A DNA stretch of 64,000 nt, taken from positions 26,036 to 90,035 of the forward strand of contig CALVYG010000001.1 in the NCBI GenBank assembly GCA_944372095.1, written 5' to 3'. The translations under genes were made by a program, and so were the position numbers. This DNA comes from an uncultured Clostridia bacterium. Lineage in GTDB: Bacteria; Bacillota; Clostridia; Christensenellales; DTU072. Shown here piece after piece: positions 559 to 34,586 of this stretch; the first letter of the stretch is position 1; the number at the start of each line of letters is the position of its first letter. The notes beneath the pieces are model-generated. The model saw nothing but the letters and a program-made list of their open reading frames with translations, had not been told where the DNA came from and ran no database searches.

Positions 559-1374
559 TCAGAGATGGAATATAAACGTCTTTTTGCTGTGCGTTATGAA
601 CATATATCCGAACGCATATACAAATATTCCCATTCCGTATATAAGAAGATGCGCTTCCCAGCCCGGAACGTGCCCCATTATGATTTCCCTGAAATAGTCT
701 ACGTAGTAGTACATCGGATTGAATTGAAGCAATTCCGTAAATAACGGATTATTCAATGCGTTTATCGTATAAAAAATCGGCGTCGCATACATCAGCAAAG
801 TCACAAACACGTTATATATGTTTTTTATATCGCGAAAATATACATAAACGACAGACAATACAAAACTTACCCCCATCGTAATCATCGTCAGCGCAGGGAT
901 AAGTATTAACGTCATAAGAAGCGTCGGTTCAAAAGGCTGCTTATAAATTAACATAACTATAAACAACGCTACAAGTGCAAACACAAAGTTGACAAGCGCG
1001 GTATACACCGGTATTCTCGGATAACACGCCACGGGAATTCTGGTCTGCAACACAAGCGACCGCCTGCTCACTATGCTCGTAAGACCCATCTGCGTTCCCG
1101 AACGGAATACCGTGTTGTATATAAGCATTCCGCTTAAAACGTAAACCGGGTATTTTATTTCCACCATATCTCTTCCGAACAGCTGGCTGTATACAAACGA
1201 CAACACGAACATCGTAAGCAACGGATTCAGTACCGTCCATACTATTCCAAGCACCGAGTCACGATAAGTCGTTTTGACGTTCCTGATAACCATTGTCGCC
1301 AAAAGATTTATATTTTTCTTCCTTTCGTGCCAAAATTCGGCTTTTTTAGCTTCTTTTACTTCTTTGTTATTCAT
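559..1374 (-). CDS. Polysaccharide ABC exporter permease (Wzm/TagG-like)
   Basis: YRDSVLGIVWTVLNPL, YFRD, YATPIFY and NPM motifs; ~6 TM. Confidence 0.9.
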   Translation of the reverse strand: MNNKEVKEAKKAEFWHERKKNINLLATMVIRNVKTTYRDSVLGIVWTVLNPLLTMFVLSFVYSQLFGRDMVEIKYPVYVLSGMLIYNTVFRSGTQMGLTSIVSRRSLVLQTRIPVACYPRIPVYTALVNFVFALVALFIVMLIYKQPFEPTLLMTLILIPALTMITMGVSFVLSVVYVYFRDIKNIYNVFVTLLMYATPIFYTINALNNPLFTELLQFNPMYYYVDYFREIIMGHVPGWEAHLLIYGMGIFVYAFGYMFITHSKKTFIFHL

Positions 1375-2017
1375 TTTCTTCGTCTGTTTCCGCAGGGGAA
1401 TATTTCCTTTCCATTTCTTTTATTTGCTCTTCCGGTACGTTTTTAAGGCAATACTCCTCTCCTTTCAGTATGACCAAAAACGTCTTGAAAAACAGCTTAA
1501 CGTCCAATTTGAACGAAATATTTTCGGCATAATACACGTCATAATAACTTCTGCCTTTCTTTTCGAGATACCCGTTACCCGACACTTGCGCAAGTCCGCT
1601 CAATCCGGGTTTCACGTCGAATTTATGCTTTTCCCATTCTTCGTATTCTTCCAGATAAACCGGCATAAGCGGCCTCGGACCTATAAAACTCATATCACCT
1701 TTAAGTATGTTGAATAATTGCGGAGTTTCGTCAATTTTCAATTTTCGCAGAATTTTCCCGACGGCGGTTACGCTCGGATTGTCGTCTTCGATTACGGCGT
1801 GGTCGGTATCGAATGCCACGTCCGTAGATTTCATTGTACGGAATTTATATATCATAAAAATTTTCCCGTCCTTGCCGACGCGTTCCTGCTTAAAAAACGC
1901 TTTCCCGTGCCTGTCCGCTCTGATAAGTATCGCGGATATCAAAAATACCGGAGACATTACCACTATCCCGATAAGCGCGAAAAATCTGTCCAGAAACCCT
2001 TTTATCCTCTTGTACAT
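1367..2017 (-). CDS. Priming sugar transferase (polyprenyl glycosylphosphotransferase)
   Basis: FKQERVG, YKFRTM, DETPQLFNILKGDMSFIGPRP, KPGLSGLAQV. Confidence 0.92.
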   Translation of the reverse strand: MYKRIKGFLDRFFALIGIVVMSPVFLISAILIRADRHGKAFFKQERVGKDGKIFMIYKFRTMKSTDVAFDTDHAVIEDDNPSVTAVGKILRKLKIDETPQLFNILKGDMSFIGPRPLMPVYLEEYEEWEKHKFDVKPGLSGLAQVSGNGYLEKKGRSYYDVYYAENISFKLDVKLFFKTFLVILKGEEYCLKNVPEEQIKEMERKYSPAETDEENE

Positions 2018-2042
2018 TTCTACTTTCCTTTCTTACTTTTCG

Positions 2043-2894
2043 TCATTGCTGCATAATAAAAAGTCTCGGTTTTATGTTAAGCTTTTCGACGTGCATGAAT
2101 CCGCCGTATTCCCGCTGTTCGCCGTCAACGCAGAACAACTGTTTTTCTTCCAGATTTATTTCCACGTTCTTTACGGGAAGAAAATCTATTTTCTTGGAAT
2201 GATATTCTTTTCTGAACCCCATAAAAAATGCCCTGAAAAACGGGAAAAACATCCTTATTTTCCCCCATAAATTGTTTTTTCCGGTGCTTTTAATAAGTAA
2301 AAGGTGCATTATTTTATCGTCGGGACGGTACGCTTTATTGAATTTGAATCCGAAACATCTGTCCGAATCGATTATCATTATAAGCGAATAGTTTCCGCCG
2401 TACGTTTCGTTATCCGTTACGATTTCAGCTTTTATGTTGAAAACTTTATATGCGGATAGCACTTTGGCAACATACGCAAGCGCTTTGAATTTCTTCTTTG
2501 CTCCCGATTTCGCCCTGTAACCTATTTCCGTAAAGGACCCTGCCGCTATAACGTAAGAAAACAGATTCTTATTTACCATTCCCATACACGGCAGCCGTCT
2601 CGACCTCTTTAATCCTTCGCTCGTCGATTTTGCCCTTTCGTTCAATGTTCCGTAAGGAAAATAGAATATGTCTATTGCCATATCCTTACACTTATTCACG
2701 GCGTTGTTTATCGTCCCGTCTCCGCCGCAAACTATCAGTTTGTTAAATCCGCTTACGTCGTAATCCTGATCAGGCGAAAATAACCTCAGTTCGTGAATAT
2801 CGTCGTTTTTCGCACACACGAAACGTATTACGTCAACATCCACGCCTTCAGAATTTCCGCTCATATCGTTTACGACTATCAACGTTTTCTTCAT
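2043..2894 (-). CDS. Diacylglycerol/lipid kinase family protein
   Basis: GGDGTIN, PYGTLNE and C-terminal VDGE motifs. Confidence 0.8.
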   Translation of the reverse strand: MKKTLIVVNDMSGNSEGVDVDVIRFVCAKNDDIHELRLFSPDQDYDVSGFNKLIVCGGDGTINNAVNKCKDMAIDIFYFPYGTLNERAKSTSEGLKRSRRLPCMGMVNKNLFSYVIAAGSFTEIGYRAKSGAKKKFKALAYVAKVLSAYKVFNIKAEIVTDNETYGGNYSLIMIIDSDRCFGFKFNKAYRPDDKIMHLLLIKSTGKNNLWGKIRMFFPFFRAFFMGFRKEYHSKKIDFLPVKNVEINLEEKQLFCVDGEQREYGGFMHVEKLNIKPRLFIMQQ

Positions 2895-2907
2895 TCAGTC
2901 CGACCCG

Positions 2908-4008
2908 TTATTTTAATTCCTTTTCCGCTGCTTCCAGAGCACGGGATATTACTTTGTCCATATCGTAATATTTATACTCGCCCAACCTTCCTCCGAAAAT
3001 CACGTTTTTTTCTTCTTTACTCTTTTTTTCGTATAACGCGTATATTTCACCGTTTCTTTCGTCGTTTATCGGATAATACGCCTCTTTCCCTTCCGTCCAT
3101 TCCGTCGGATACTCCCTGCTTATTACCGTTTTCGGACATTTCGTAAATTCGAAATGTTTATGCTCGATTATTCTCGTATACGGAATTTCGTACTCGGTAT
3201 AGTTTATTACGGCATTTCCCTGATAATCTTCGATATCGAGAATTTCGTCTTCGAATCTTACCGTCCTGTATTCGAGTTTTCCGTACTTATATCCGAAAAA
3301 TTCGTCTATTTTCCCGGTAAAAACAATCTTTCCGAACTTATCGTCCGTGTTCTTTATAAATTCAAAATAATCGACTCCCGTTCTTACTTCCGCGCCTTCC
3401 AACATTTTTTTCACCATTTCGGTATATCCGCCGATAGGAATCCCCTGGTATTTGGCGTCAAAGTAATTGTTGTCATACGTAAACCTCAACGGCAACCGCT
3501 TGATTATAAACGCAGGTAAATCCTTACATCTTCTTCCCCACTGCTTTTCGGTATATCCCTTAACAAGAGTTTCGAATACGTCTTTTCCGACAAGTTTAAG
3601 AGCTTGTTCTTCCAGGTTCGCCGGCTCGCCTATATTCAGTTCGGCAATCTGAGAATTTATCTTTTCTTTTGCTTCTTCCGCAGTGGTCACTCCCCAAAGC
3701 TGGTGAAAAGTGTTCATATTGAACGGCATATTGTATCTTTTACCCTTATACACGGCTATCGGGCTGTTGATGAAGTTATTGAACGAAGCAAATCTGTTTG
3801 CGTATTCCCATATTTTGTCGTCGTTGGTATGAAAAATATGAGCGCCGTAACGGTGTACGTTTATTCCTTCCACTTTTTCACAATAGATATTTCCCGCAAT
3901 ATGATTTCTCTTATCTATGACAAGGCAGGTTTTCCCTGCGTCCGTCGCTTCCCTTGCAAATACCGCCCCGAAAAGTCCGGCTCCCACTATCAGATAATCG
4001 TATCTCAT
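2908..4008 (-). CDS. glf: UDP-galactopyranose mutase
   Basis: GAGLFG FAD motif, HRYGAHIFHT, YTEKQWG, GRLGEYKYYDMD. Confidence 0.97.
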   Translation of the reverse strand: MRYDYLIVGAGLFGAVFAREATDAGKTCLVIDKRNHIAGNIYCEKVEGINVHRYGAHIFHTNDDKIWEYANRFASFNNFINSPIAVYKGKRYNMPFNMNTFHQLWGVTTAEEAKEKINSQIAELNIGEPANLEEQALKLVGKDVFETLVKGYTEKQWGRRCKDLPAFIIKRLPLRFTYDNNYFDAKYQGIPIGGYTEMVKKMLEGAEVRTGVDYFEFIKNTDDKFGKIVFTGKIDEFFGYKYGKLEYRTVRFEDEILDIEDYQGNAVINYTEYEIPYTRIIEHKHFEFTKCPKTVISREYPTEWTEGKEAYYPINDERNGEIYALYEKKSKEEKNVIFGGRLGEYKYYDMDKVISRALEAAEKELK

Positions 4009-4009
4009 T

Positions 4010-4861
4010 TTATTTCACCGTCCTTTTGAGGTATTCGGAAAATTTTTCACCGAACAATTCGGAACGAAGCGCATACTCGACGTTTGCCTGACAAAATCCG
4101 AATTTATTTCCGAGGTCGTATCTTTTACCTTCGAATTCGTAAGCATACCCCCCCTTCGCCGAAAGAATATTTCTTATTGCCACGGTAAGGTAAAGTTCGT
4201 CCATAAACAACGGCGCTTCCTCCAATGCGCGGAAAATATCGGGCGTAAGCACGAATCTCCCAAGGCTTACCAAATCCGACGGAAGTTCGTCAACCGGCGG
4301 TTTCTCTTTTATATCCTTTGCTTCCGTAAATCTGCCCTCGCTTTTTCCGGGAACGATAACTCCGCATCTTGCAGCAATTTCTTTTTCGCAACGCTGTACT
4401 CCTATTATGGTTTTCCCCGTAAGTTCGAAAGCGTCGCAAAGCTGCCCTATCGCGGGGCGGTTTTCGGTATATATAACGTCGTCTCCGAACATTACCGCAA
4501 AAGGTTCGTCTCCCACCGCTTTTTTCGTCACCAACACCGCGTCGCCGTTTCCTCTCATCGGCTCCTGTAACACAAACGTTATTTTCGCTCTGTCAAGAAT
4601 TTCGTCAACCGATTTCAAAAGCGTCCTGTCTTTCAGATTGTCGTAAATCTCGCTTTCGGAAAAATAATTTTCTATCGCCTGCTTACCCCTGCTTACCACT
4701 ATTATGATTTCCGTTATACCGGAATTTACCGCCTCTTCGATTACGTACTGAATGGCGGGCTTATCTACTATCGGCAGCATTTCCTTAGGTACGCCTTTCG
4801 TTATCGGCAAGAATCGCGTCCCGTATCCTGCCGCAGGTATTACGGCTTTTTTTATTTTCAT
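4010..4861 (-). CDS. galU: UTP-glucose-1-phosphate uridylyltransferase
   Basis: KAVIPAAGYGTRFLPITKGVPKEMLPIVDKP. Confidence 0.95.
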   Translation of the reverse strand: MKIKKAVIPAAGYGTRFLPITKGVPKEMLPIVDKPAIQYVIEEAVNSGITEIIIVVSRGKQAIENYFSESEIYDNLKDRTLLKSVDEILDRAKITFVLQEPMRGNGDAVLVTKKAVGDEPFAVMFGDDVIYTENRPAIGQLCDAFELTGKTIIGVQRCEKEIAARCGVIVPGKSEGRFTEAKDIKEKPPVDELPSDLVSLGRFVLTPDIFRALEEAPLFMDELYLTVAIRNILSAKGGYAYEFEGKRYDLGNKFGFCQANVEYALRSELFGEKFSEYLKRTVK

Positions 4862-4914
4862 CTGTTTCCCTCCTAATTTGTCTATTTATATTTAGTATTT
4901 ATCAGTTGTTTTTA

Positions 4915-4943
4915 ATTATAATTTAGGGAACCCTTTTTGTCAA
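4915..4943 (-). promoter_or_regulatory. Sigma-A promoter of the galU-glf-wzm/wzt operon
   Basis: TTGACA-17 nt-TATAAT on the minus strand. Confidence 0.8.
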
Positions 4944-5111
4944 TGTTTTTAACTCCACAAAACGCCACGGTAAAAAAACTAAATTTTAATTCAATATTTT
5001 TATCGGAATTAAAGTATCATAATATCCATTTTCGGAATCCCAAAATTCCTTCTAATTATAAATAAAGTCTTTTTATATCCTGTCCCTCTTTTAACAGTCA
5101 CAAACACCGTA

Positions 5112-5140
5112 TTGACAACGGCGCGAAAAACGGATATAAT
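5112..5140 (+). promoter_or_regulatory. Sigma-A promoter of the small lipoprotein gene
   Basis: TTGACA-17 nt-TATAAT. Confidence 0.8.
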
Positions 5141-5179
5141 TGTTTTAACAAAATAAATCCTTAAAGGAGTGAACGGATT

Positions 5180-5545
5180 ATGAAAAAAGCATTGAAAATA
5201 ATTGTTGCGGTTGCTTTGATAGCCGCATTCGCTTGCATTTTATTTGCGTGCGTACCCACTAACCTCGAAAAGGCAAAAGAAAAAATGGAAAATGAAGGCT
5301 TTTCCGTTTTATCCGCTTCGTTCAACTATGAAGGAATGGAAGGTGCGTTTAGTGCCACAAAAGTAAGCATTTCCGAAGGTTCCGGAACGCTCACCGCTAT
5401 TTACTTCGAAAGCATTTCCGCGGCAAAAGAAGCTTATGAAACGATTGTCGGAGAAGAAAACAAAGATAAAGATAATGCCGTCAAACAGAGCGGCAGATGG
5501 GTTTACTTCGGTACTTCTGCCGGAATTAAAGCTTTCGAAGGCTGA
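5180..5545 (+). CDS. Small hypothetical lipoprotein
   Basis: SD AAGGAG; signal peptide with lipobox LFAC; own promoter and terminator. Confidence 0.8.
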   Translation: MKKALKIIVAVALIAAFACILFACVPTNLEKAKEKMENEGFSVLSASFNYEGMEGAFSATKVSISEGSGTLTAIYFESISAAKEAYETIVGEENKDKDNAVKQSGRWVYFGTSAGIKAFEG

Positions 5546-5566
5546 ACCGATATCGGATAATTTTTC

Positions 5567-5596
5567 AAAAGAGAACCTTATCGGTTCTCTTTTTTT
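5567..5596 (+). terminator. Intrinsic terminator
   Basis: AAAAGAGAACC-loop-GGTTCTCTTTT followed by T run. Confidence 0.8.
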
Positions 5597-5659
5597 CTGA
5601 AAAAATTTTTTAATCGTTCGGGTGTTCATAAAGGCGCGATTACTTCATAGAATTTAAGT

Positions 5660-6499
5660 ATGAAAAATCTCGCTTATTATAACGGAGCGGTAGGCGAACT
5701 CACCGATATGTCAATCCCGATGTGCGACAGAGTATGTTTTTTCGGTGACGGCGTTTATGACGCTACCTACGCAAGAAACAAAAAAGTTTTTACACTCACA
5801 GAACACGTCGACAGACTTTTTTTCAGCGCGGAATCCGTCGGAATCGTTCCGCCCGTTCAGAAAGAAAAACTTTGTCAGCTTGTACGCTCACTCGTCACCC
5901 GCTGTGACGAAAACGAAACGTTCGTTTACGTTCAGTTTACCCGGGGCATATGCGTTCCGCGCAATCATATACATATCGGCGGCGACGCCAATTTATGGAT
6001 TACCGTAACGCCGAAAAAAATCACTCCGAAAGAAAAACGTCTTACTCTTATGACTTACCCCGACGAAAGGTATAATCTTTGCTATGTAAAAACTTTGAAT
6101 CTTTTGCCAAACGTACAGGCTTCAAATCTCGCGGCGAAAAACGGCTGTGACGAAGCTCTTTTCGTGGAGAACGGAACGGTTAACGAATGCGCGCACAGCA
6201 ACGTGCATATTCTCTCCGACGGCGTGTTGATTTCCCCTCCGCCCGGGAACCGCGTTCTCGGCGGTATTGCCCGCAATCATCTTTTGTCCGCATGCAAAAA
6301 ACTCGCCGTTCCCGTCGAAGAAAGACATTTTTCTCTTGACGAAGCAATGGGCGCCGACGAGGTTTACATTACCAGTGCGGGGACTTTTCTCGCTCCCTGT
6401 CGCGCCATTGACGGAAAAGAAGTCGGCGGCGGTAATATCGGTCTGACCAATGCTCTTCAAAACGAGCTTTACGGGGAATTTTATGCTTTTACCGACTGA
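5660..6499 (+). CDS. Class IV PLP aminotransferase (D-amino-acid aminotransferase-like)
   Basis: DRVCFFGDGVYD, VKTLNLLPN (PLP lysine), ECAHSN, LGGIAR, ADEVYITS. Confidence 0.88.
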   Translation: MKNLAYYNGAVGELTDMSIPMCDRVCFFGDGVYDATYARNKKVFTLTEHVDRLFFSAESVGIVPPVQKEKLCQLVRSLVTRCDENETFVYVQFTRGICVPRNHIHIGGDANLWITVTPKKITPKEKRLTLMTYPDERYNLCYVKTLNLLPNVQASNLAAKNGCDEALFVENGTVNECAHSNVHILSDGVLISPPPGNRVLGGIARNHLLSACKKLAVPVEERHFSLDEAMGADEVYITSAGTFLAPCRAIDGKEVGGGNIGLTNALQNELYGEFYAFTD

Positions 6500-7550
6500 C
6501 AGAACTTATGCCGACGTAAACGTAAAACAATTTATCGGCAACGTAAATTTTTTCCGCAATAAATGTAAAAATAAAAAAATCATCGCCGTTCTGAAAGCGT
6601 CCTGCTACGGACACGGCGACAGACTTGCAGAATTTGTTTATAACAATGTTGATGCTTTGGGTGTCGCTACTCTCGATGAAGGTATCCGATTGCGCAGATT
6701 TTGTCCGAATATCCCTATTTTAATTCTCGGTTACGTTCCTTTCGGGTCGGTATTCGCTTTGGATAAATACGCTTTATCCGTTTCGGTGTTTTCTCTTTCG
6801 TACGCTCAGACTCTGAACGCTCAGGCGGGAAAATACGGTATTAAATTAAAAGCCCATCTTAAAATAAATTCCGGTATGGACAGACTCGGTTTTTCTTACG
6901 ATAAAGAACAAGACTTAATTTCGGTCCTGTCTCTCGGGAACATTATATTCGAAGGCATTTTCAGCCACTACGCGGCAAGCGAAAAAGAATCTCCCGATTT
7001 TTTCCTCGAACAAACCCGGAGATTTGAATATGCGCTAAATATTTGTCGCGGGTTATATGATAAATTCGATTTCATACATATAGCAAACACATCTGCCGCC
7101 GACGAAAACTCATTCGGCAATACGGTAAGAATCGGTTACGGCCTTTACGGATACGGGTTAGAGGAAGTTACGCCAGTACTTAATTGGAAAGCGCGCGTAA
7201 TACAGGTTCACCGCGCAAATAAAGGCGAAACCGTAGGATACGGCAGAACCTATATAGTCGAGAAGCCTGCGCTTATCGCCACTCTCGCCGTAGGATACGG
7301 CGACGGCTATCCGCGCATTATGTCAAATTGCGGAAAAGTTATTTTTAACGGAAAATTTTTACCGGTTGTCGGCAGAGTCTGTATGGATATGATGATGGTA
7401 AACGCATCGGGAAGCGGCATTAAGCCGGGAGATTACGTCACTCTTTTAGGTTCGGATAACAATTTATCCATAAGTGCGGAAGAACTCGGTTTCGGCTATG
7501 AAGTCCTTTGCGGAATTTCGCCGAGAGTAAAAAAATACTATATTACGTAA
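6483..7550 (+). CDS. alr: Alanine racemase
   Basis: AVLKASCYGHG, HLKINSGMDRLG, GYGDGYPR, GRVCMD; likely start ATG 6483 overlapping the upstream gene. Confidence 0.92.
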   Translation: MLLPTDRTYADVNVKQFIGNVNFFRNKCKNKKIIAVLKASCYGHGDRLAEFVYNNVDALGVATLDEGIRLRRFCPNIPILILGYVPFGSVFALDKYALSVSVFSLSYAQTLNAQAGKYGIKLKAHLKINSGMDRLGFSYDKEQDLISVLSLGNIIFEGIFSHYAASEKESPDFFLEQTRRFEYALNICRGLYDKFDFIHIANTSAADENSFGNTVRIGYGLYGYGLEEVTPVLNWKARVIQVHRANKGETVGYGRTYIVEKPALIATLAVGYGDGYPRIMSNCGKVIFNGKFLPVVGRVCMDMMMVNASGSGIKPGDYVTLLGSDNNLSISAEELGFGYEVLCGISPRVKKYYIT

Positions 7551-26672: not shown

Positions 26673-26825
26673 TTTTCAACAGAGTTATCCACAAAGTTAT
26701 CCACATTAAATTTATTGCTTGTTTTTTGCGTAATTCTTGCATATTTATGCGAATTTATGCTTATTTTCGGTTTACTCTTCCTCTCTTGTCTTTTAATATT
26801 GTGGATAACTTCTCTCTTATTCACA
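26673..26825. promoter_or_regulatory. DnaA-box cluster
   Basis: TTATCCACA at 26685 and 26697, TGTGGATAA at 26800, TTATTCACA at 26817, TTTTCAACA at 26673. Confidence 0.85.
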
Positions 26826-26956
26826 TTTTTTGCAACTTTGGTCGATTTTTGTCGAACGTACTTTTTGCCTTATCCGTTTTCTGCGGCTTTACCGTACACC
26901 CAAAACGCCTTGCACGGCTACCTTTACATACTTCCGTTTCGGGATATTGCGCATTT

Positions 26957-27712
26957 TTATGCACCCTTTATTAAGAAAAATGCCGCAATTCCGAGTATGG
27001 CGGTATATATCGAAAACCACGCCGCTTTGTCTTTTTTCAACACCGCCACAAACGTCTTTATGGCGGCAATCCCGACGCAGAACGCCACCGCCATTCCCAG
27101 AAATACTCCGCCGTTTACGGCTGTTCTTTCCGTATTCGTGATTATCTCCACCGCGCTTGAAGCTATTATCACGGGGATTGACAGTAAAAACGACATTTCC
27201 GCGCTCTCTTCCGCATTGACTCCGCAAAGCCTCAACGCCGTTACCGTCGTTCCGCTGCGCGATATTCCGTTTATGCACGCTATTCCCTGCGCCAGTCCCA
27301 CTATCGTGCTCTTTAATCCGGTTTTATTATCAAGCGCGCTCTCTTTCGGCTTGATTATTTTAGGCAGAATTAAAATCATAGACGTGAGTATAAAGCAAAA
27401 AGGCAAGGCGTTTGCCGTCTGGTCGGTAAAATATCTTACCAACGCGGCGATTATCCCCGTAGGGATACTCGCTATCAATATCATCTTCACGCGCGCGTCA
27501 AGCGGGTGCCTGATAAGATACAGAAGCCGTTTGCGATATACCGCTATTACCGCCGCAAGCGTTGCAAGGTGCAACATCAGATTCGTCATAAGGTCGGGTT
27601 TTCCTACCCCGAGCGATTCGAGAAGCATCAGATGTCCGCTGCTCGATATCGGCAGAAATTCGGTAAGTCCCTGTACCAGTCCCAATATAAATCCGCTTAA
27701 ATATTCGTTCAT
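26957..27712 (-). CDS. uppP: Undecaprenyl-diphosphate phosphatase
   Basis: QGLTEFLPISSSGH, GISRSG, SFLLSIP. Confidence 0.93.
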   Translation of the reverse strand: MNEYLSGFILGLVQGLTEFLPISSSGHLMLLESLGVGKPDLMTNLMLHLATLAAVIAVYRKRLLYLIRHPLDARVKMILIASIPTGIIAALVRYFTDQTANALPFCFILTSMILILPKIIKPKESALDNKTGLKSTIVGLAQGIACINGISRSGTTVTALRLCGVNAEESAEMSFLLSIPVIIASSAVEIITNTERTAVNGGVFLGMAVAFCVGIAAIKTFVAVLKKDKAAWFSIYTAILGIAAFFLIKGA

Positions 27713-27797
27713 TTTACTTTATTATTTATCTTTACAATCTTATTGTTTTGATGTATACTTTATGCACGAAATCAAAGGAAAAGGCAGGTAAAATTTT

Positions 27798-28880
27798 ATG
27801 AAACTCGGCGTAGTGGGATTGCCTAACGTAGGTAAAAGCACACTGTTCAACGCATTGACAAAGGGAAAAGCAATGGCCGCCAACTACCCGTTCTGCACCA
27901 TTGACCCGAACGTCGGCGTGGTAAAAGTCAAAGACGAACGTATCGACACTCTTTCCCGTCTTTACAACAGTAAAAGTACGGTCTATACGACGATTGAATT
28001 CGTCGATATTGCGGGACTGGTAAAAGGCGCGTCGAAAGGCGAAGGTCTCGGGAACAAATTCCTTTCCCATATCCGAGAAGTGGACGCCATTGTTCACGTC
28101 GTAAGATGTTTCGACGACGAGAACATTACTCACGTGGACGGAAGCGTAGACCCCGTACGCGATATTGAAACCATATCTTTGGAACTCGTTTTTGCCGATA
28201 TCGAGACCCTGAACAGAAGAATCGACCGTACGAAAGTCGCTATGAAAAGCGGCGATAAGAAGTACGTTTTCGAAATGGACGTTCTGAAAAAACTCATGGC
28301 AGTGCTTGAAAACGGCAAACCCGTAAGAAGCCTTTCTCTCGATAAAGAGGAAGAAGAGTTCGTCAAAAGTCTGTTCCTTCTCACGGATAAGAAAGTCATC
28401 TACTGCGCAAACGTAAAAGAGGGCGAAGAAAACTGCGAATATGCCCGCAAAGTAGCCGATTATGCCGCGGAAGAAGGCAGCGAGTCCGTCGCTTTATGCG
28501 TTAAACTCGAAGAAGAATTGAGCGAACTCGAAGATGACGAACGCGAATTGTTTATGGCTGACCTCGGTATGACGGAAAGCGGTCTGGATAAGCTTGTCAA
28601 AAAATGTTATTCTCTTCTCGGACTTATAAGTTTTCTTACCGCGGGAGAAAAAGAAACCCGCGCCTGGACGATTGAGAAAGGAACGAAAGCTCCTCAGGCG
28701 GCAGGTAAGATACATTCCGATTTCGAAAAAGGCTTTATCCGCGCGGAAATAGTGGATTACGATACTCTGGTGGAATGCGGCTCGTTCAACGCCGCAAAAG
28801 AAAAAGGCAAAATGCGTTCGGAAGGCAAAGATTACGTATTCAAGGACGGCGACGTCGTGATTTTCAGATTTAACGTTTAA
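27798..28880 (+). CDS. ychF: Redox-regulated ATPase YchF
   Basis: [41 protein letters not shown]. Confidence 0.97.
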
Positions 28881-28899
28881 TCTGAATAAAAACAAAATT

Positions 28900-28927
28900 A
28901 AAAGCGTCCTTTGGGGGACGCTTTTTT
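28900..28927. terminator. Bidirectional terminator
   Basis: AAAAGCGTCC-loop-GGACGCTTTTTT. Confidence 0.8.
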
Positions 28928-28981
28928 ATTTAATTTTTTTCTTTTGTCTATCCTATGAAATTTCTGTTTTTATCACAGAAA

Positions 28982-30625
28982 TTATTTATGCTGATTTCTT
29001 ATATCGGCACGTTTGATTTTACCGCTGATAGTTTTCGGCAATTCGGCGACGAACTCCACAAGTCTCGGGTATTTATAAGGCGCGGTGGTACGTTTAACGT
29101 GGGTTTGCAGTTCTTTAACCAATTCTTCCGACGGTTCATACCCCTTTGCAAGCACTATCGTGGCTTTGATTATCTGTCCGCGCTGTTCGTCGGGAACTCC
29201 CGTAATCGCACATTCGAGAACAGCGGGATGCTCCATAAGCGCGCTTTCGACTTCAAACGGTCCTATTCTGTATCCGCTGCTTTTTATTACGTCGTCCGTT
29301 CTGCCGATAAACCAGAAATATCCGTCTTCGTCGTAATATGCCAAATCTCCCGTGTTGTGATAACCGTCCCCCAGTCTTTCTTTCGTAAGCTCGGGACTGT
29401 TATGATATTTATATACCAAACTGCATTGGGGTTTTTGAATTTTAATCACTATTTCCCCCACTACTCCCGGCTGAACGTCGTTCATATTTTCGTCCACAAG
29501 ATGTAAATCGTACAAAGGAGAAGGTTTTCCCATACTCCCCTCTTTTATGTCCATCATCGAAAACGTACCGAGAATTATACTCGTTTCGGTCTGTCCGTAT
29601 CCTTCGTAAATTTTTTGCCCGGTAGCCGCGTAAAATTGCCTGAAAACTTCGGGATTCAGCGCTTCCCCCGCCGTAGAACAATGCGTAAGCGACGAAAGAT
29701 TGTATTTCGATAAATCCTCTTTTATAAGATAACGGTATATCGTAGGCGGCGCGCAGAAGGTGTCTATTCCGTATTTTTCAATCCTTTCAAGCAAATCGGT
29801 AGGTTTGAATTTGTGCAGATAATCGTATATAAACAGACACGCGCCCGCTATCCACTGTCCGTAAAGTTTTCCCCAACTGCATTTCGCCCAGCCCGATTCG
29901 GATGCCGTAAAATGCAGTCCGTCGTCTTTTACCTTGTGCCAGAACACGGCATTGTATATAAATCCGAGCGGATAAAGGAAATTATGCGCAACCATTTTAG
30001 GATATCCGGTTGTTCCGGAAGTGAAATAAACCATACTTTCGTCGTCAAGTGACGTTTCCACTCTTTCCCATTCCGTACTCGCATTTTCCATTTCCGAAGT
30101 ATAATCCGCATACCCGTCGCGTTTCCCCGTCGTAAAATATATTATATCCGACGGAAGGTCGGGTTTCGTCTTATCGATGTTTTCAAGCACCGTTTCTTCG
30201 TTGGTCGCTATAAGGCATTTCGCCCCCGCTCCCTTTATGCGGTATTCTATGTCTTTCGGGGTAAGCAGGAAAGTTGCGGGGATTATTACTATACCGGCTT
30301 TATGGCACGCTATAACCGTAACCCAATATTCCCATCTGCGGTTGAGCATCGTCATAACGATGTCGCCTTTTTTCAATCCGCGGCTTTTAAGTACGTTTGC
30401 CGCCTGATTTGCCATAACCGACAGTTCTTTGAACGTTATCGTCTTTTCTTCACCTTTGTCGTTGCACCACAGTATCGCTTTCTTTTCCGGCGCAAGTTTC
30501 GCATATTCGTCTATTACGTCGTAAGCAAAATTAAATTTCTCAGGTACTTTCAGTTTTCCGTTCTTTCTGAAATCTTCATAATCGGCATATTCCGTTCTTT
30601 CAAGAAATCTGTTTACTAAATTCAT
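28982..30625 (-). CDS. Acyl-CoA synthetase (AMP-forming, short/medium-chain type)
   Basis: YFTSGTTGYPK, YGQTE, YHNTGD, GRTDDVIKSSGYRIGPFEVES, LPKTISGKI. Confidence 0.93.
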   Translation of the reverse strand: MNLVNRFLERTEYADYEDFRKNGKLKVPEKFNFAYDVIDEYAKLAPEKKAILWCNDKGEEKTITFKELSVMANQAANVLKSRGLKKGDIVMTMLNRRWEYWVTVIACHKAGIVIIPATFLLTPKDIEYRIKGAGAKCLIATNEETVLENIDKTKPDLPSDIIYFTTGKRDGYADYTSEMENASTEWERVETSLDDESMVYFTSGTTGYPKMVAHNFLYPLGFIYNAVFWHKVKDDGLHFTASESGWAKCSWGKLYGQWIAGACLFIYDYLHKFKPTDLLERIEKYGIDTFCAPPTIYRYLIKEDLSKYNLSSLTHCSTAGEALNPEVFRQFYAATGQKIYEGYGQTETSIILGTFSMMDIKEGSMGKPSPLYDLHLVDENMNDVQPGVVGEIVIKIQKPQCSLVYKYHNSPELTKERLGDGYHNTGDLAYYDEDGYFWFIGRTDDVIKSSGYRIGPFEVESALMEHPAVLECAITGVPDEQRGQIIKATIVLAKGYEPSEELVKELQTHVKRTTAPYKYPRLVEFVAELPKTISGKIKRADIRNQHK

Positions 30626-30643
30626 CTGCGTCTCCCGTATATT

Positions 30644-30672
30644 AAAAAAGGTATCTTGCTTGTAAGATACCT
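30644..30672 (-). terminator. Attenuator terminator in the acyl-CoA synthetase leader
   Basis: AGGTATCTT-ACAAGC-AAGATACCT-TTTTT on the minus strand, upstream of the CDS start. Confidence 0.85.
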
Positions 30673-30712
30673 CCTGTATTAAATGTCGCTTACAAGCACG
30701 GTTTATCGAACG

Positions 30713-30772
30713 TCATCTTACGACGTTTACGACTACCACTCCTACGACTGTAAGTATTCTGCTTGTTTTCAT
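30713..30772 (-). CDS. Val-rich attenuator leader peptide MKTSRILTVVGVVVVNVVR
   Basis: SD GGAAGG, ATG 30772, TGA 30713-30715; 8 Val among codons 9-18; followed by antiterminator and terminator. Confidence 0.85.
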   Translation of the reverse strand: MKTSRILTVVGVVVVNVVR

Positions 30773-30800
30773 AATACCTTCCTGCGTTTTTGTAATTATT

Positions 30801-30829
30801 ATGCTAGCACAATTTTCACCGTCGGTCAA
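30801..30829 (-). promoter_or_regulatory. Promoter of the leader-peptide/acyl-CoA synthetase transcript
   Basis: TTGACC-17 nt-TAGCAT with TGn extension. Confidence 0.55.
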
Positions 30830-33189
30830 CGTTTTGCAAAAAGTTTTTCCAAAATTTTTACGTTGGTTTGAGCGTCTTTGGAATAAATTGCTCCTATTCC
30901 GTCCGCATACGTCTTAGTTACGACCGCACCGCCCACTATTACGGGAATCTTCGGATATCTCTCCTTTAACAGGCGTACGGTGTCCGTCATATTGTCTATC
31001 GTTGTGGTCATAAGCGCGCTGAGTCCGACCGCGTCGGGCAGGTATTTTTCCGCCGCTCTCAGTATTTCTTCGGGCGGCACGTCTTTTCCGAGGTCGATTA
31101 TTCTGTATCCGTAATTTGCAGTAACGGCTTTGACTATGTTTTTTCCTATATCGTGTACGTCCCCTTTTACCGTTGCAAGTATAACGGTTCCTTTATTGCT
31201 TTCCCCTTTTTCTCCTATATATTTTTCCTTTATATAATCCAGTGCCGCTTTCGCCGCTTCGCTCCCCGCTATGAGCTGCGGCAGGAACGCCTCGCCTTTT
31301 TCGTACATTGCCCCGAGTTCGTTCAGTCCTTTTATTATTCCGCTTTCTATTATTTCCGAATAGTTTTCTTCCGTTGCTTCTTCTTTTACCGCGCGCACGG
31401 CTTCCGACGTCTGCCCTTTCTTTATGCAATAACAAATATCGTGTTTCAAACTCTGCGTTTCGCGCTTTATTTCCTTTCCCGAGTTAAGCGCAATATATTC
31501 CCTGCACGCTTCGTCTTCCCCTTTAAGAAGTTTTACCGCCGCAGGGTCGTCTCCCTCTTTCAATACGGGATTTATTATAACCGCCGTAACTCCTTCTTCC
31601 GTAACCATTTTCAAAAACGCGGCGTTTATTTTTGCCCTGTCGGGCAACCCGAAACTTATATTCGATAACCCTAACGCCGTTTTTACGCCGAGTTCCGACC
31701 TCAGTCGTTTTATCGATTCGAGCACCTTTATACCGTTTGAAACATCGACGCTTACCGCCATCGTTAACGGGTCGAATATGAGTTTTTCTTTGCCCACTCC
31801 GTATTTCTCGGCAAGAGCTATGATTTTTTTTGCCGCGGCGATTCTGCCTTCCGTATCGCTCGGTATCCCCTTTTCGTCCATACATAACGCTATTATGTAC
31901 GAACCGTATTTTTTCGCTACGGGAAACACTTTTTCCGCCGATTTTTCGTCGGCGCTTACGGAGTTTATCACGCAGATTCCGTCGGTTACTCTCACCGCGC
32001 TTTCAAGCGCTTCCTTTTTCGACGTGTCGATAACGAGAGGCAAATCGGCAACGCCCTGAATATGCGCGACCGCGGATACCAGTTTTTCTCTTTCGTCAAT
32101 CCCGGTCATTCCGAGATTTATATCGAGCAAATCCGCTCCCTGCTCCGCCTGTTCCACGCACATCGATAAAATATAATCGTAATTATCGTCGATAATAGCT
32201 TGTTTCAGAAGCGGTTTATTTGTCGGATTTACTCTTTCTCCAATCACTATCGGTTGTTTTTCACCGAAATTAACCACCCTTGAATAAGAACACACGGCGT
32301 CGGTATAATTCTTGTTTTCAACCGCGGGAATATCCGCCGTCGCCCTAACCGTACAAGCTATATACTTTTCGTCCGTTCCGCAGCAACCGCCGAGAATTCC
32401 CGCCCCGGCAAAGGCAAGTTCTCTCATCTGCAATCCGAAAGTTTCAGCGTCCACGTCGTAAACCGTCCGTCCGTTTTCATATCTCGGCAACCCTGCATTC
32501 GGTTTTGCGAAAACCGGCACGCGGGCGTGCCTTACAAGCGAATCAACCGCCTTTTTCATACCTGCCGCACCCGTTCCGCAGTTAGCTCCGATTGCCGCCG
32601 CTCCCAGCGCCTGCGCGCATAAAGCGAAACTCTCTGCCGACACTCCCGCAAACGTTCTGCCCGTTTCTTCAAACGTCATACTGCATATTACGGGCAGATT
32701 CGTTATTTCTTTGAACGCAAGTATCGCCGCACGCATTTCCTGCAAATCCGAAACGGTCTCTATAACCACTCCGTCGGCTCCGCTGTCTTTTACAATCTCC
32801 GCCTGTTCGGCAAACAAGCAATACGCTTCTTCAAAACTCATCCGTCCGTACGGATATAACAGCTCGCCCGTAGGTCCGCAATCGTAAAGTACGTATCCGC
32901 CGTATTTTTCCGCCGATTCCTTTGCGTTTCTTATCCCCGCTTCAATCAGTTCTTTAAGCGTGTATTTCGTTAAATCCGCTTTTCTGCGGTTGCATCCGAA
33001 CGTATTAGTGTAAATCACGTCGCTGCCGGCGGCAAGATACTTTTCGTGAATTTCTCTTACCAATTCCGGACGCTCTATGTTGAGAACTTCCGCATGCAAT
33101 GTAGGCACTCCGTATTTTACAAGCTCGCTGCCAGTTCCTCCGTCCAGATATACTCTTCCTTTAATAAATTCGGTGAATTCCTTTTTCAT
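30826..33189 (-). CDS. metH: Cobalamin-dependent methionine synthase catalytic part (Hcy-, pterin- and B12-binding domains)
   Basis: LDGGTGS, GANC, GGCCGT, IGERVNPT, GDVHDIGKNIV, LSALMTTT; no C-terminal activation domain. Confidence 0.92.
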   Translation of the reverse strand: MKKEFTEFIKGRVYLDGGTGSELVKYGVPTLHAEVLNIERPELVREIHEKYLAAGSDVIYTNTFGCNRRKADLTKYTLKELIEAGIRNAKESAEKYGGYVLYDCGPTGELLYPYGRMSFEEAYCLFAEQAEIVKDSGADGVVIETVSDLQEMRAAILAFKEITNLPVICSMTFEETGRTFAGVSAESFALCAQALGAAAIGANCGTGAAGMKKAVDSLVRHARVPVFAKPNAGLPRYENGRTVYDVDAETFGLQMRELAFAGAGILGGCCGTDEKYIACTVRATADIPAVENKNYTDAVCSYSRVVNFGEKQPIVIGERVNPTNKPLLKQAIIDDNYDYILSMCVEQAEQGADLLDINLGMTGIDEREKLVSAVAHIQGVADLPLVIDTSKKEALESAVRVTDGICVINSVSADEKSAEKVFPVAKKYGSYIIALCMDEKGIPSDTEGRIAAAKKIIALAEKYGVGKEKLIFDPLTMAVSVDVSNGIKVLESIKRLRSELGVKTALGLSNISFGLPDRAKINAAFLKMVTEEGVTAVIINPVLKEGDDPAAVKLLKGEDEACREYIALNSGKEIKRETQSLKHDICYCIKKGQTSEAVRAVKEEATEENYSEIIESGIIKGLNELGAMYEKGEAFLPQLIAGSEAAKAALDYIKEKYIGEKGESNKGTVILATVKGDVHDIGKNIVKAVTANYGYRIIDLGKDVPPEEILRAAEKYLPDAVGLSALMTTTIDNMTDTVRLLKERYPKIPVIVGGAVVTKTYADGIGAIYSKDAQTNVKILEKLFAKR

Positions 33190-33728
33190 TTTACTCCGAT
33201 TAACGCTATTACGCTTTTATTTGGCGTAAGCATATAACATTCGTTGATTTTTACCCCTATCCTTGCCCCGTCCGTAACGTCGAACAATTTTTTCTGAACC
33301 GATATGTCCAAATCCCCGTAACCGCAACTTATTCTGCCTGTTATATTCCCGTATTTTTCCGATAACTCTTGTTCGGTTTTATCGAGAAATTCTTCGATTT
33401 TTGCAGTATACACGGCATCGAGAACCACGGCTTTCGCCGCATTTGTCGCAAAAACTTTCTTTAATAAAATCTCGCTTTTCAATCCGAGAGTCGCAATAAC
33501 GGAAATTATTTTTTTACACCCGTAAAAGTGATTTTCCGCCAGTTTTCCTTCAAGCACAATATCCGTTCCTTCGAGTTTTATGCCTCTTTCCTCTTTAACT
33601 GCGGTAAAACACGCGCTTATATAAGCAGGCACGATAACGGAAGCTTCTTTTTCCGCTTCTTCGATATATTTTGCCGTTATTTCGTCAACTTCCTTAATAC
33701 CGAGATATCTTGCCGCTTCTTTCGTCAA
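33186..33728 (-). CDS. Stand-alone methionine synthase reactivation domain
   Basis: RISCGYGD and MLTPNKSVIALIG; lies between metF and metH. Confidence 0.82.
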   Translation of the reverse strand: MTKEAARYLGIKEVDEITAKYIEEAEKEASVIVPAYISACFTAVKEERGIKLEGTDIVLEGKLAENHFYGCKKIISVIATLGLKSEILLKKVFATNAAKAVVLDAVYTAKIEEFLDKTEQELSEKYGNITGRISCGYGDLDISVQKKLFDVTDGARIGVKINECYMLTPNKSVIALIGVK

Positions 33729-33758
33729 TTTCCGTTCCCTTGCCTTTAAGGTAAATTT

Positions 33759-34586
33759 TTACAACAAATCACTTATCCCGCCGAAAATTTCCCTCGTAAC
33801 GTCGGCTCTGCACATCGTGTAAAGATGAATGTGTCCGCACCCTTCCTTTACAAGGTTCCTTATCTGATTAACGGCATATTCTTCCCCCGCTTTTCTCATA
33901 TCGGCGGGATTGTTTCCGTACCGTGAAAGAATATTCTTCATTTCGTCGGTAAGTCCTGCGCCGCTTAACGTAATCATACGGTAAACCGAATTAAGCGACA
34001 AAACGGGCATTATTCCCGCGCAGAATTCCGCGTCCGAACAGATTTTTACTCCTTTGTCACGCATTCTCAGAAAATCGGCGTTGTCAAGAAACAACTGGCT
34101 TACGAAACTCCTCACTCCGAGGTCGTATTTAAGTTTAATCACGCTTAAATCGTCATAAAAACTTCCGCTTTCGACGTGCCCTTCGGGGTAACATGCCGCC
34201 ATCACGTTAAACCCTCCGACGGCGTTTACGGCCTTTATAAGGTCGGTTGCGTGCCGATACTCTCCGAGAGGTTTTTCAGGCGTAACGTCGCCTCTTAACG
34301 CAAGTATGGTGTCTACTTTTAATTCTTTAAGTAACCCTAACTCAGCTTTTATACTCTCGCTCGTCGCACCTGTACAGGTAAGATGCGACACGGCTGGAAT
34401 TTTATAATTATCGTATATGTATCCGCAAACTTCTCCGGTAAGCCCTTTCTTTGCGTTGCCCGCACTGTACGTTACGCTTATAAAACAAGGGTTCATCCCG
34501 GACAGTTCGTCAAGACACCCGTATATTTTCTTTATTCCGTCGCTTGTCTTCGGCGGAAACACCTCAAAGCTGAGTTCGGTTTTCAT
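33759..34586 (-). CDS. metF: Methylenetetrahydrofolate reductase
   Basis: SFEVFPPK, ISVTY, HLTC, LALRGD, YPEGH, HLYTM. Confidence 0.94.
   Translation of the reverse strand: MKTELSFEVFPPKTSDGIKKIYGCLDELSGMNPCFISVTYSAGNAKKGLTGEVCGYIYDNYKIPAVSHLTCTGATSESIKAELGLLKELKVDTILALRGDVTPEKPLGEYRHATDLIKAVNAVGGFNVMAACYPEGHVESGSFYDDLSVIKLKYDLGVRSFVSQLFLDNADFLRMRDKGVKICSDAEFCAGIMPVLSLNSVYRMITLSGAGLTDEMKNILSRYGNNPADMRKAGEEYAVNQIRNLVKEGCGHIHLYTMCRADVTREIFGGISDLL

Follow-up and report, generated by a model that had tools for sequence, protein, structure and literature searches.

A probable valine-sensing leader-peptide attenuator preceding an acyl-CoA synthetase gene in a genus of uncultured Christensenellales

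We describe the leader of a gene for an AMP-forming acyl-CoA synthetase, situated on the minus strand of a stretch of 64,000 nucleotides (nt) from an uncultured Clostridia bacterium of the order Christensenellales (contig CALVYG010000001.1, positions 26,036 to 90,035), called the window below. On the evidence of sequence, the leader is probably a classical ribosome-mediated attenuator that senses charged Val-tRNA and controls this single gene, which is predicted to encode a branched short-chain acyl-CoA synthetase. The original prediction, made from the letters of the window, ascribed to the leader the architecture of the ilv-type ribosome-mediated attenuators and to the enzyme the activation of isobutyrate for valine synthesis under a shortage of Val-tRNA. 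The architecture holds and is conserved across the genus, and the proposed role is supported by the gene content, the conservation and the enzyme family. The elements of the leader are the following.

30829-30801, minus strand: promoter (-35 box TTGACC at 30829-30824, a 17-nt spacer with TG, -10 box TAGCAT at 30806-30801; 9/12 matches in the promoter scan)
30782-30777, minus strand: Shine-Dalgarno-like GGAAGG, 4 nt 5' of the ATG of the upstream open reading frame (uORF)
30772-30713, minus strand: uORF for the leader peptide MKTSRILTVVGVVVVNVVR (ATG, 19 codons and TGA; 8 Val, 1 Ile, 1 Leu)
30766-30760, minus strand: region 1 (anti-antiterminator), ACAAGCA, in uORF codons 3-5; its partner is UGCUUGU at 30698-30692
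30737-30700, minus strand: hairpin P1 with the core AACGUCGU/AUGACGUU, covering the last Val codons, the stop codon and the next 13 nt
30698-30689, minus strand: region 2, the 5' arm of the antiterminator, UGCUUGUAAG (in DNA, TGCTTGTAAG), exact complement of region 3
30666-30657, minus strand: region 3, the 3' arm of the antiterminator, CUUACAAGCA (in DNA, CTTACAAGCA), exact complement of region 2
30672-30644, minus strand: intrinsic terminator, formed by AGGUAUCUU at 30672-30664, the loop ACAAGC at 30663-30658, AAGAUACCU at 30657-30649 and the U tract at 30649-30644

The -35 box shares bases with the stop codon of the metH-like gene upstream, and the predicted transcription start is about 35 nt past this box. 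The promoter, the Shine-Dalgarno site and the Val-rich frame at 30772-30713, with the amino acid composition given above, were recovered just as first described. The Val codons of the uORF occupy positions 30748-30719. With seven Val in nine consecutive codons, this uORF stands alone among the 15,567 open reading frames (ORFs) of 8-40 codons that start with ATG genome-wide. In the search of the genome's short ORFs for other leader peptides, frames rich in F, K, L and S from AT-rich spacers dominated the first scan; the second gave no other convincing run of an amino acid.

According to the original prediction, 30698-30689 is the exact complement of 30666-30657, and this pairing excludes a 9-bp (base pair) terminator with a U tail. 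Both the sequence and the folding confirm this. Region 3 takes in the last 3 nt of the 5' arm of the terminator, the whole loop, and the first nt of the 3' arm (region 4), and since it shares these bases with the terminator, antiterminator and terminator are mutually exclusive. Folding of the alternative structures, proposed at the outset as a check, yields -12.9 kcal/mol and a z-score of -3.8 for the antiterminator helix of 10 bp, and -12.3 kcal/mol and a z-score of -5.2 for the terminator (as DNA, AGGTATCTT-ACAAGC-AAGATACCT followed by T6), so the two are almost equal in energy. A simple consensus terminator scanner missed the terminator of this attenuator, and its presence was established by folding. 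The hairpin said to span the stop codon is there too, with the core AACGUCGU/AUGACGUU, and its extended form has -13.2 kcal/mol and a z-score of -2.7. In the minimum-energy fold of the full-length leader P1 extends outward, and Val codons 9-12 pair with region 2. One element was absent from the original prediction: region 1 is a copy of the terminator loop, and its pairing with region 2 provides the full 1:2 / 2:3 / 3:4 set of a classical attenuator. The leader as a whole, 161 nt, folds with a z-score of -3.65, and none of 200 shuffled sequences was as stable.

The gap between the end of the U tract and the ATG of the synthetase gene is 18 nt and contains the Shine-Dalgarno site GGGAGA (30636-30631). 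As the gap is filled by this site and leaves no room for a second promoter, the promoter of the leader is the only promoter of the gene. The Rfam search of positions 28000-34000, with E up to 10, produced no match in 30640-30830, and thus none to the T-box model RF00230, to the Leu, His, Thr, Trp and Phe leader families or to the ilvB motifs.

The enzyme was used as a query against 61 related genomes; matches with E up to 1e-100 were obtained in 46 of them, and 30 loci were taken for comparison. Val-rich uORFs upstream of orthologs, which the original prediction had suggested looking for, are present in 18 of the 30 loci (L001-L018), in each case together with the GCUUG...CAAG pairing and a terminator before the gene. 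All 18 come from the genus of the window, with enzyme identity of 71-100%. A nineteenth copy is situated at a contig end in genome G005, which brings the leader to 19 of the 28 genomes of the genus. No leader was seen in the remaining 12 loci, with enzyme identity of at most 69%; for one of these, L019, the available upstream sequence is limited to 162 nt. No Rfam match at gathering scores was obtained with the leaders of L001, L006, L013 and L018.

The leader peptides are 18-26 codons long and contain 5-10 Val each, for instance MYTSNLSVVEVVVVNVVE, MKIASTVKVLHVAVKVVVVKPTAL, MTKQSNSGFNVNVVVDVVLVVVAV and MKSSNVKNLVVNMVVVVPAVVTVCG. Outside the Val run, the peptide sequences are unrelated between lineages. 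Over the 18 uORFs, Val accounts for 144 of 382 residues (38%), against 7.2% in the long ORFs of the genome, and the other two frames of the same stretches hold 8 and 7 Val. A start codon and an in-frame stop codon are present in all 18 aligned leaders and in G005. Moreover, in each of the 18 loci no frame but the Val frame has a start codon past the predicted transcription start. Frame +1 has 83 stops. Frame +2, left Arg-rich and nearly stop-free by GUCGUA repeats, has 4 stops; reading it as an Arg-rich leader peptide was considered and rejected, as it has no start codon in any of the 18 loci.

Purine-rich stretches precede the uORF ATG wherever the uORF is not at the 5' end of the transcript. 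In L006-L009 and L011, the first uORF ATG is about 7 nt past the -10 box (about 35 nt past the -35 box), which suggests that the uORF of these loci may be translated from a leaderless mRNA. The same loci have a second in-frame ATG five codons on, with no Shine-Dalgarno site.

The promoter is conserved as well: in the alignment of the 18 leaders, TTGAC and the -10 positions T, A, A and T are invariant. The metH gene is the upstream neighbour in just 9 of the 18 loci, and thus the leader travels with the synthetase gene. The antiterminator pattern, searched for in 81 genomes of the family, was found once per leader-bearing genome. It also has one further match in G003 and matches in other genera; of the matches away from the synthetase leaders, those inspected (L045, L047) sit in long ORFs. 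Eighty genome-contig loci and 80 metagenome-contig loci yielded no Val uORF beyond the records of the genus itself. The nearest named records are metagenome-assembled genomes from the gut, assigned to Christensenellales, uncultured Christensenella, Catabacter and Clostridia; more distant ones include Candidatus Borkfalkia and Stercoripulliclostridium.

Two loci deserve a separate mention. The ortholog in L019 (G026:C102) nests in the leader-bearing clade; its 162 nt of upstream sequence contain neither a uORF nor a terminator, and its genome has ilvD. The sister of this genome, G017, also has ilvD, and its leader is the least Val-rich of all (5 Val, 5 Leu, 2 Ile).

What is observed comprises the elements in the sequence and how far they are conserved, the pairings that compete with one another, and which genes the genome contains; how the events follow one another, how the switch responds to valine and, further below, which substrate the enzyme uses are inferred from these. 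The leader peptide would be translated while RNA polymerase moves on. When valine is sufficient, the ribosome would pass the Val codons and depart at the stop codon. Region 2 would then be captured by region 1, in codons 3-5, and by the P1 extension onto Val codons 9-12, so that the terminator would form and transcription would stop 18 nt short of the synthetase ATG. When valine is short, the ribosome would stall on the Val run and mask the leader partners of region 2; the free region 2 would pair with the newly made region 3, the terminator would be blocked, and the synthetase gene would be transcribed. Just 0-3 nt separate the stop codon from region 2 in L006-L009 and L011, and therefore a terminating ribosome in these loci would also block region 2 directly, as in the trp operon. 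In replete cells of the subgroup to which the window belongs, the ribosome would be released quickly, and the stop-codon hairpin would refold with its extension onto region 2.

The pairings required by this scheme were assessed across the loci. On the MAFFT alignment of 18 sequences, 97.8% of the 180 antiterminator cells are paired; shifting the 3' partner by 1-3 columns lowers the figure to 26-48%. The cores, GCUUG (present in 18 of 18 loci) and CAAG, do not vary. The distance between the two arms varies among the loci, which fits an RNA helix; the alternative of a DNA operator with an inverted repeat was rejected on this ground. In every locus (18/18), at least 5 T come after a hairpin whose energy is between -10.4 and -18.6 kcal/mol. 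The terminator stems are wholly different between lineages (GGUAUCUU, ACACCUUAC, GGCGCC, AUCGAUUUUCUU and others) and are out of register on the alignment. Hence there is no single consensus structure, and the terminators were judged in each sequence separately.

In minimum-energy folds of transcripts ending just past region 2, at least 5 of the 10 arm bases are paired with uORF bases in 17 of 18 loci. The stop codon is always 0-17 nt 5' of region 2, and stop-codon hairpins are seen also in the folds of other loci with long gaps. In an equilibrium model, the antiterminator gains on the terminator in 16 of 18 loci once a ribosome mask is placed on the second Val codon. In the subgroup of the window, the unmasked terminator and antiterminator are in a near tie; in the window itself, the terminator-minus-antiterminator energy changes from -0.1 to +3.4 kcal/mol when the mask is applied.

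The metabolic side of the proposal can be compared with the gene content. The enzyme would convert isobutyrate to isobutyryl-CoA, which a VorB-type ferredoxin oxidoreductase (VOR) would reductively carboxylate to 2-oxoisovalerate; IlvE would make valine from the latter, and LeuABCD together with IlvE would make leucine. The genome of the window comprises 1.81 Mb in 55 contigs and is 95.4% complete. The original prediction had named ilvBCD and a 2-oxoacid:ferredoxin oxidoreductase as the genes to look for, and the outcome agrees with it. Searches for ilvD and ilvC gave zero matches in this genome, the same searches being positive in all 14 control genomes, and the best score for ilvB is 200 bits versus the cut-off of 538. 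A four-subunit oxidoreductase is present, whose alpha subunit matches VorB with 542 bits (cut-off 399), and there are also an indolepyruvate oxidoreductase and a PFOR-type enzyme. Type II IlvE is present with 465 bits (cut-off 307). The leuA-leuC-leuD-leuB operon is complete (L174, G000:C6:4500-12500, positions 2419-6797). As the leucine branch, which starts from 2-oxoisovalerate, is kept without ilvBCD, another source of 2-oxoisovalerate is to be expected. No leader was found before the VOR operon or leuA.

Of the 28 genomes of the genus, 19 bear the leader, and in 17 of these no ilvD was found; all nine congeners without the leader have the gene. VorB scores above the cut-off in 25 of the 28 genomes, among them 19 of 19 with the leader. 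In two congeners, genes for the oxidoreductase and a synthetase are close to each other. In G003, a co-directional cluster (L152, G003:C7:24500-31200, positions 1204-6087) joins a synthetase gene of this family to the genes for ferredoxin, VorB, the beta and gamma subunits and an HTH-cupin protein; it has no Rfam leader at gathering scores. In G027 (L153, G027:C159:6000-12300), the VorB and synthetase matches are about 2 kb apart on one contig.

The gene itself and the structure that follows it are as listed.

28982-30625, minus strand: AMP-forming acyl-CoA synthetase of 547 amino acids (aa), with the Pfam domains AMP-binding and AMP-binding_C
28900-28925, both strands: two-way terminator (11 pairs on one strand, 10 on the other) separating the synthetase gene from a convergent ychF-like gene

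Given the two-way terminator, the synthetase gene is a single-gene unit. All weak Rfam matches of the region 28000-34000 fall on this terminator. The best PDB match of the protein is 3ETC, that is, MacsMa (E 3.6e-196, residues 2-545), and the best NCBIfam model is MbcS (NF047394), with 488.7 bits versus the cut-off of 850 bits. The latter score is under the equivalog cut-off, and thus the synthetase is a relative, not an equivalog, of the enzymes acting on small branched acids. MacsMa of Methanosarcina acetivorans is described as preferring 2-methylbutyrate (PMC10455477), and MbcS of Staphylococcus aureus as activating 2-methylbutyrate and isobutyrate and serving branched-chain fatty acid synthesis (PMC10026030).

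The remark in the original prediction that Firmicutes usually use T-boxes was borne out in an unexpected manner, as a paralog in the same genome has an Ile T-box, and relatives have Val T-boxes. The genome of the window has only three T-boxes. One of them (L041, G000:C21, about 258-498) precedes a gene at 558-2846 for a 762-aa fusion of HTH_19, Cupin_2 and AMP-binding domains, 50% identical to the synthetase. In the Infernal alignment, the specifier of this T-box is AUC followed by the usual purine, that is, Ile, and the paralog may be the 2-methylbutyrate-to-isoleucine counterpart of the gene in the window. In the order, T-boxes are found before 11 of 18 such fusion genes. The specifiers of 13 fusion-gene T-boxes were read, namely those of the 11 order loci less the weak T-box of L162, plus the genome's own copy and the first copies of two tandem pairs; 11 are AUC (Ile) and two are GUA (Val). 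The tandem pairs of fusion genes come from two other families (L175, G039:C1:162300-167700; L176, G054:C39:9900-15300; the T-boxes are in L172, L166, L173 and L171). In both pairs, an Ile (AUC) T-box precedes the first copy and a Val (GUA) T-box the second.

In a tree of 34 synthetases, the leader-bearing genes and L019 form one clade (100/100) within the stand-alone group, and the T-box fusion genes fall in the other main clade. The tree contains 11 of the 18 leader loci, since L003, L005, L008, L011, L014, L016 and L017 were omitted as close repeats. Given the separate clades, the Val leader peptide is not descended from the genes with Val T-boxes and arose independently of them, on a different paralog. 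The genome's two remaining T-boxes are in L038 (G000:C25, 1501-3160) and L040 (G000:C24, 1501-3254), with the specifiers Trp (UGG) and Tyr (UAC), respectively; they precede genes for a pyridoxal phosphate-dependent enzyme, possibly TrpB-like, and a sodium:solute symporter. Judging by their targets, all four tRNA-sensing leaders of the genome are on salvage or uptake genes, and none is on a gene for a tRNA synthetase.

Several observations weigh against the valine attenuator as set out above. Covariation in the antiterminator is thin: four of the ten pairs are invariant, and both-sided changes occur in two pairs and only three cells, with U-A replaced by C-G in L015 and L016; therefore this helix rests mainly on conservation within one genus. 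The fold of L012 shows no pairing between region 2 and the uORF, the ribosome mask leaves this locus unchanged, and L018 moves in the opposite direction; in addition, the mask test defined the antiterminator only partly in L007 (5 bp) and L008 (4 bp). At least nine loci keep the terminator thermodynamically favoured even with a stalled ribosome, and the antiterminator of these loci must be a kinetic trap. In the subgroup of the window, the stop codon is 14 nt 5' of region 2, and a ribosome at the stop codon would not cover region 2. With the ribosome in this position, equilibrium folding favours the antiterminator, P(terminator) being 0.01, and thus termination in valine-replete cells of this subgroup would depend on kinetics. 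Further, transcripts cut before region 4 form the antiterminator without any ribosome (the cut-transcript folding used a wrong CAAG for L001, L003 and L017). Since the terminator wins at all ribosome positions in many loci and the antiterminator forms ribosome-free in cut transcripts, equilibrium cannot decide the kinetics. Quick release of the ribosome followed by refolding in the window subgroup is the weakest step of the model.

Other observations on the same side concern the codons, the genomes and the enzyme. The codons for Val in the 18 uORFs are GTA (66), GTC (62), GTT (10) and GTG (6), the genome preferring GTA and GTT and having the tRNAs Val-UAC, Val-GAC and two Val-CAC; such a strong bias to GTA and GTC means that RNA-level constraints also shape the Val run. 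Two leader-bearing genomes, G017 and G024, do have ilvD. Moreover, the genomes are related, not independent, and hence the difference in ilvD between genomes with and without the leader may go back to just one or two events in evolution. Finally, the enzyme scores under the MbcS cut-off, and isobutyrate is its predicted substrate.

The Val-tRNA attenuator could also be combined with a different role of the enzyme, such as the supply of branched primers for membrane fatty acids, or activation of 2-methylbutyrate, isovalerate or another short acid with valine as a proxy. The affinities of the enzyme agree with this, since MbcS, the best NCBIfam match, is reported to serve branched-chain fatty acid synthesis (PMC10026030), and MacsMa, the best PDB match, to prefer 2-methylbutyrate and not isobutyrate (PMC10455477); also, some leaders carry other branched codons, L015 having 5 Ile and L018 having 5 Leu. 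We nevertheless consider such a role rather unlikely, because control by the charging of a single tRNA is a hallmark of amino acid supply genes, the paralogs have Ile and Val T-boxes, ilvC and ilvD were not found, yet leuACDB, IlvE and VOR are kept, and within the genus the leader goes together with the absence of ilvD.

Two further readings dispense with the sensing of Val-tRNA. If a trans-acting factor, that is, an RNA-binding protein, a small RNA or a metabolite, recognized the GCUUG and CAAG cores or the GUCGUA repeats, the Val frame would be a by-product. The cores are indeed invariant amid freely varying stems, the Val codons are nearly all GTA or GTC, as if selection acted on nucleotides, and frame +2 of the run is almost free of stops as well. 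On the other hand, the start codon, the in-frame stop codon and the Val run are kept in 19 leaders despite the changing length, sequence and position of the run; start codons are missing from the other frames, the distance from the stop codon to region 2 stays at 0-17 nt, no Rfam riboswitch or protein-binding leader matches, and the variable spacing of the arms rules out a DNA operator. This makes a trans-acting factor quite improbable. We give still less credence, and in fact very little, to the uORF being a functional hydrophobic micropeptide with a terminator of its own and the synthetase being expressed by unregulated leak-through. The peptide is hydrophobic, and short ORFs ahead of operons are often annotated as hypothetical proteins (PMC2965389), but its sequence is not conserved beyond the Val content, the conserved helix that excludes the terminator would be purposeless, and the 18-nt gap with its Shine-Dalgarno site leaves the gene with no promoter other than that of the leader.

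Leader peptides that respond to amino acids are textbook material in Proteobacteria and Actinobacteria and are rare in Firmicutes; in E. coli, the ilvGMEDA and ilvBN leaders are leader-peptide attenuators of branched-chain amino acid operons. The uORF, or ilvB-II motif, of Corynebacterium ilvBNC is described as a branched-chain leader-peptide attenuator too (PMC10272879). Like these ilv leaders, the leader of the window has a short uORF rich in branched-chain codons with in-frame start and stop codons, and an antiterminator that excludes a terminator situated before the gene. It also shares with them the single copy per genome, the fixed place and the uORF length divisible by three. The differences are that the target is a lone acyl-CoA synthetase gene in a genome where ilv genes were not found, the peptide is nearly pure Val-rich instead of mixed Ile/Leu/Val, the host is a gut bacterium of the Christensenellales, there is no sequence or Rfam similarity, and part of region 1 is upstream of the regulatory codons.

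The His leader peptides reported by Naville and Gautheret in 2010 before hisS paralogs and hisZ in bacilli are a parallel closer in taxonomy; independent emergence was argued there, and a regular leader peptide replacing a T-box in Firmicutes was treated as a notable exception (PMC2965389). Here, too, a leader peptide is found in Firmicutes whose relatives use a T-box. However, the amino acid, the gene class and the bacterial order are different, and the exchange is between paralogs, as the Val T-box is on fusion synthetases of other families, and the Val leader is on a stand-alone synthetase. With the T-boxes (RF00230) on the paralogs, the leader has in common the enzyme family, the choice between terminator and antiterminator, the sensing of tRNA charging and the presumed aim. 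Unlike it, a T-box binds tRNA directly, needs no translation and has a length of about 240 nt; the leader of the window is about 150 nt long and has no T-box features. As for MacsMa and MbcS, the synthetase is likewise of the AMP-forming short/medium-chain type, and both known enzymes are described as acting on small branched acids. The differences are the tRNA-sensing leader, none being described for either known enzyme in the available parts of the sources, and the fact that MbcS feeds fatty acid synthesis.

Synthesis of valine from isobutyrate is known from classical rumen work. The use of branched volatile fatty acids for Ile and Leu synthesis in the rumen has been reported (PMC10658910). 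We found no published account of regulated activation of isobutyrate for valine synthesis, no paper joining a leader peptide, attenuation, valine and an acyl-CoA synthetase (attenuator catalogues may list related predictions), and none joining a T-box, a specifier, an acyl-CoA synthetase and isoleucine. What is new is the leader family, which has no Rfam match, the host order, the class of the target gene and the implied pathway; mechanistically, the leader belongs with those of ilv, leu and trp.

A broader reading, which we put forward tentatively and consider slightly short of an even bet, is that members of the order make branched-chain amino acids backwards from the branched fatty acids of their neighbours, each synthetase being wired to its own tRNA: by an Ile T-box, by a Val T-box in some families, and by the Val leader that arose independently on a different paralog in this genus, where ilvBCD were lost. 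If so, leaders would label the substrates of otherwise unassignable acyl-CoA synthetases, Val standing for isobutyrate and Ile for 2-methylbutyrate, and cross-feeding with isobutyrate would be an absolute requirement of the genus, for valine as well as for leucine. The very signal that controls this fatty-acid-activating enzyme is an argument for placing it in valine supply. The reductive-carboxylation route is hard to call on gene content alone; the leader, the T-boxes of the paralogs, the missing ilvBCD, and the presence of VOR, IlvE and leuACDB together could serve as its marker readable from a genome. The leader would also be a clean, genus-wide example of a leader peptide in Clostridia. 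For culturing the uncultured gut Christensenellales, isobutyrate and 2-methylbutyrate are suggested as media additions.

The surroundings of the synthetase gene contain the following genes. Downstream, a 358-aa ORF at 26715-27791 on the plus strand, with no Pfam or NCBIfam match, is situated just upstream of the ychF-like gene. Upstream, on the minus strand, there is a methionine cluster at 30826-34586, which includes MTHFR (33759-34586) and the metH-like gene (30826-33189). The product of the latter, 787 aa, has no activation domain, and the neighbouring 180-aa ORF (33186-33728) weakly matches the methionine synthase activation domain.

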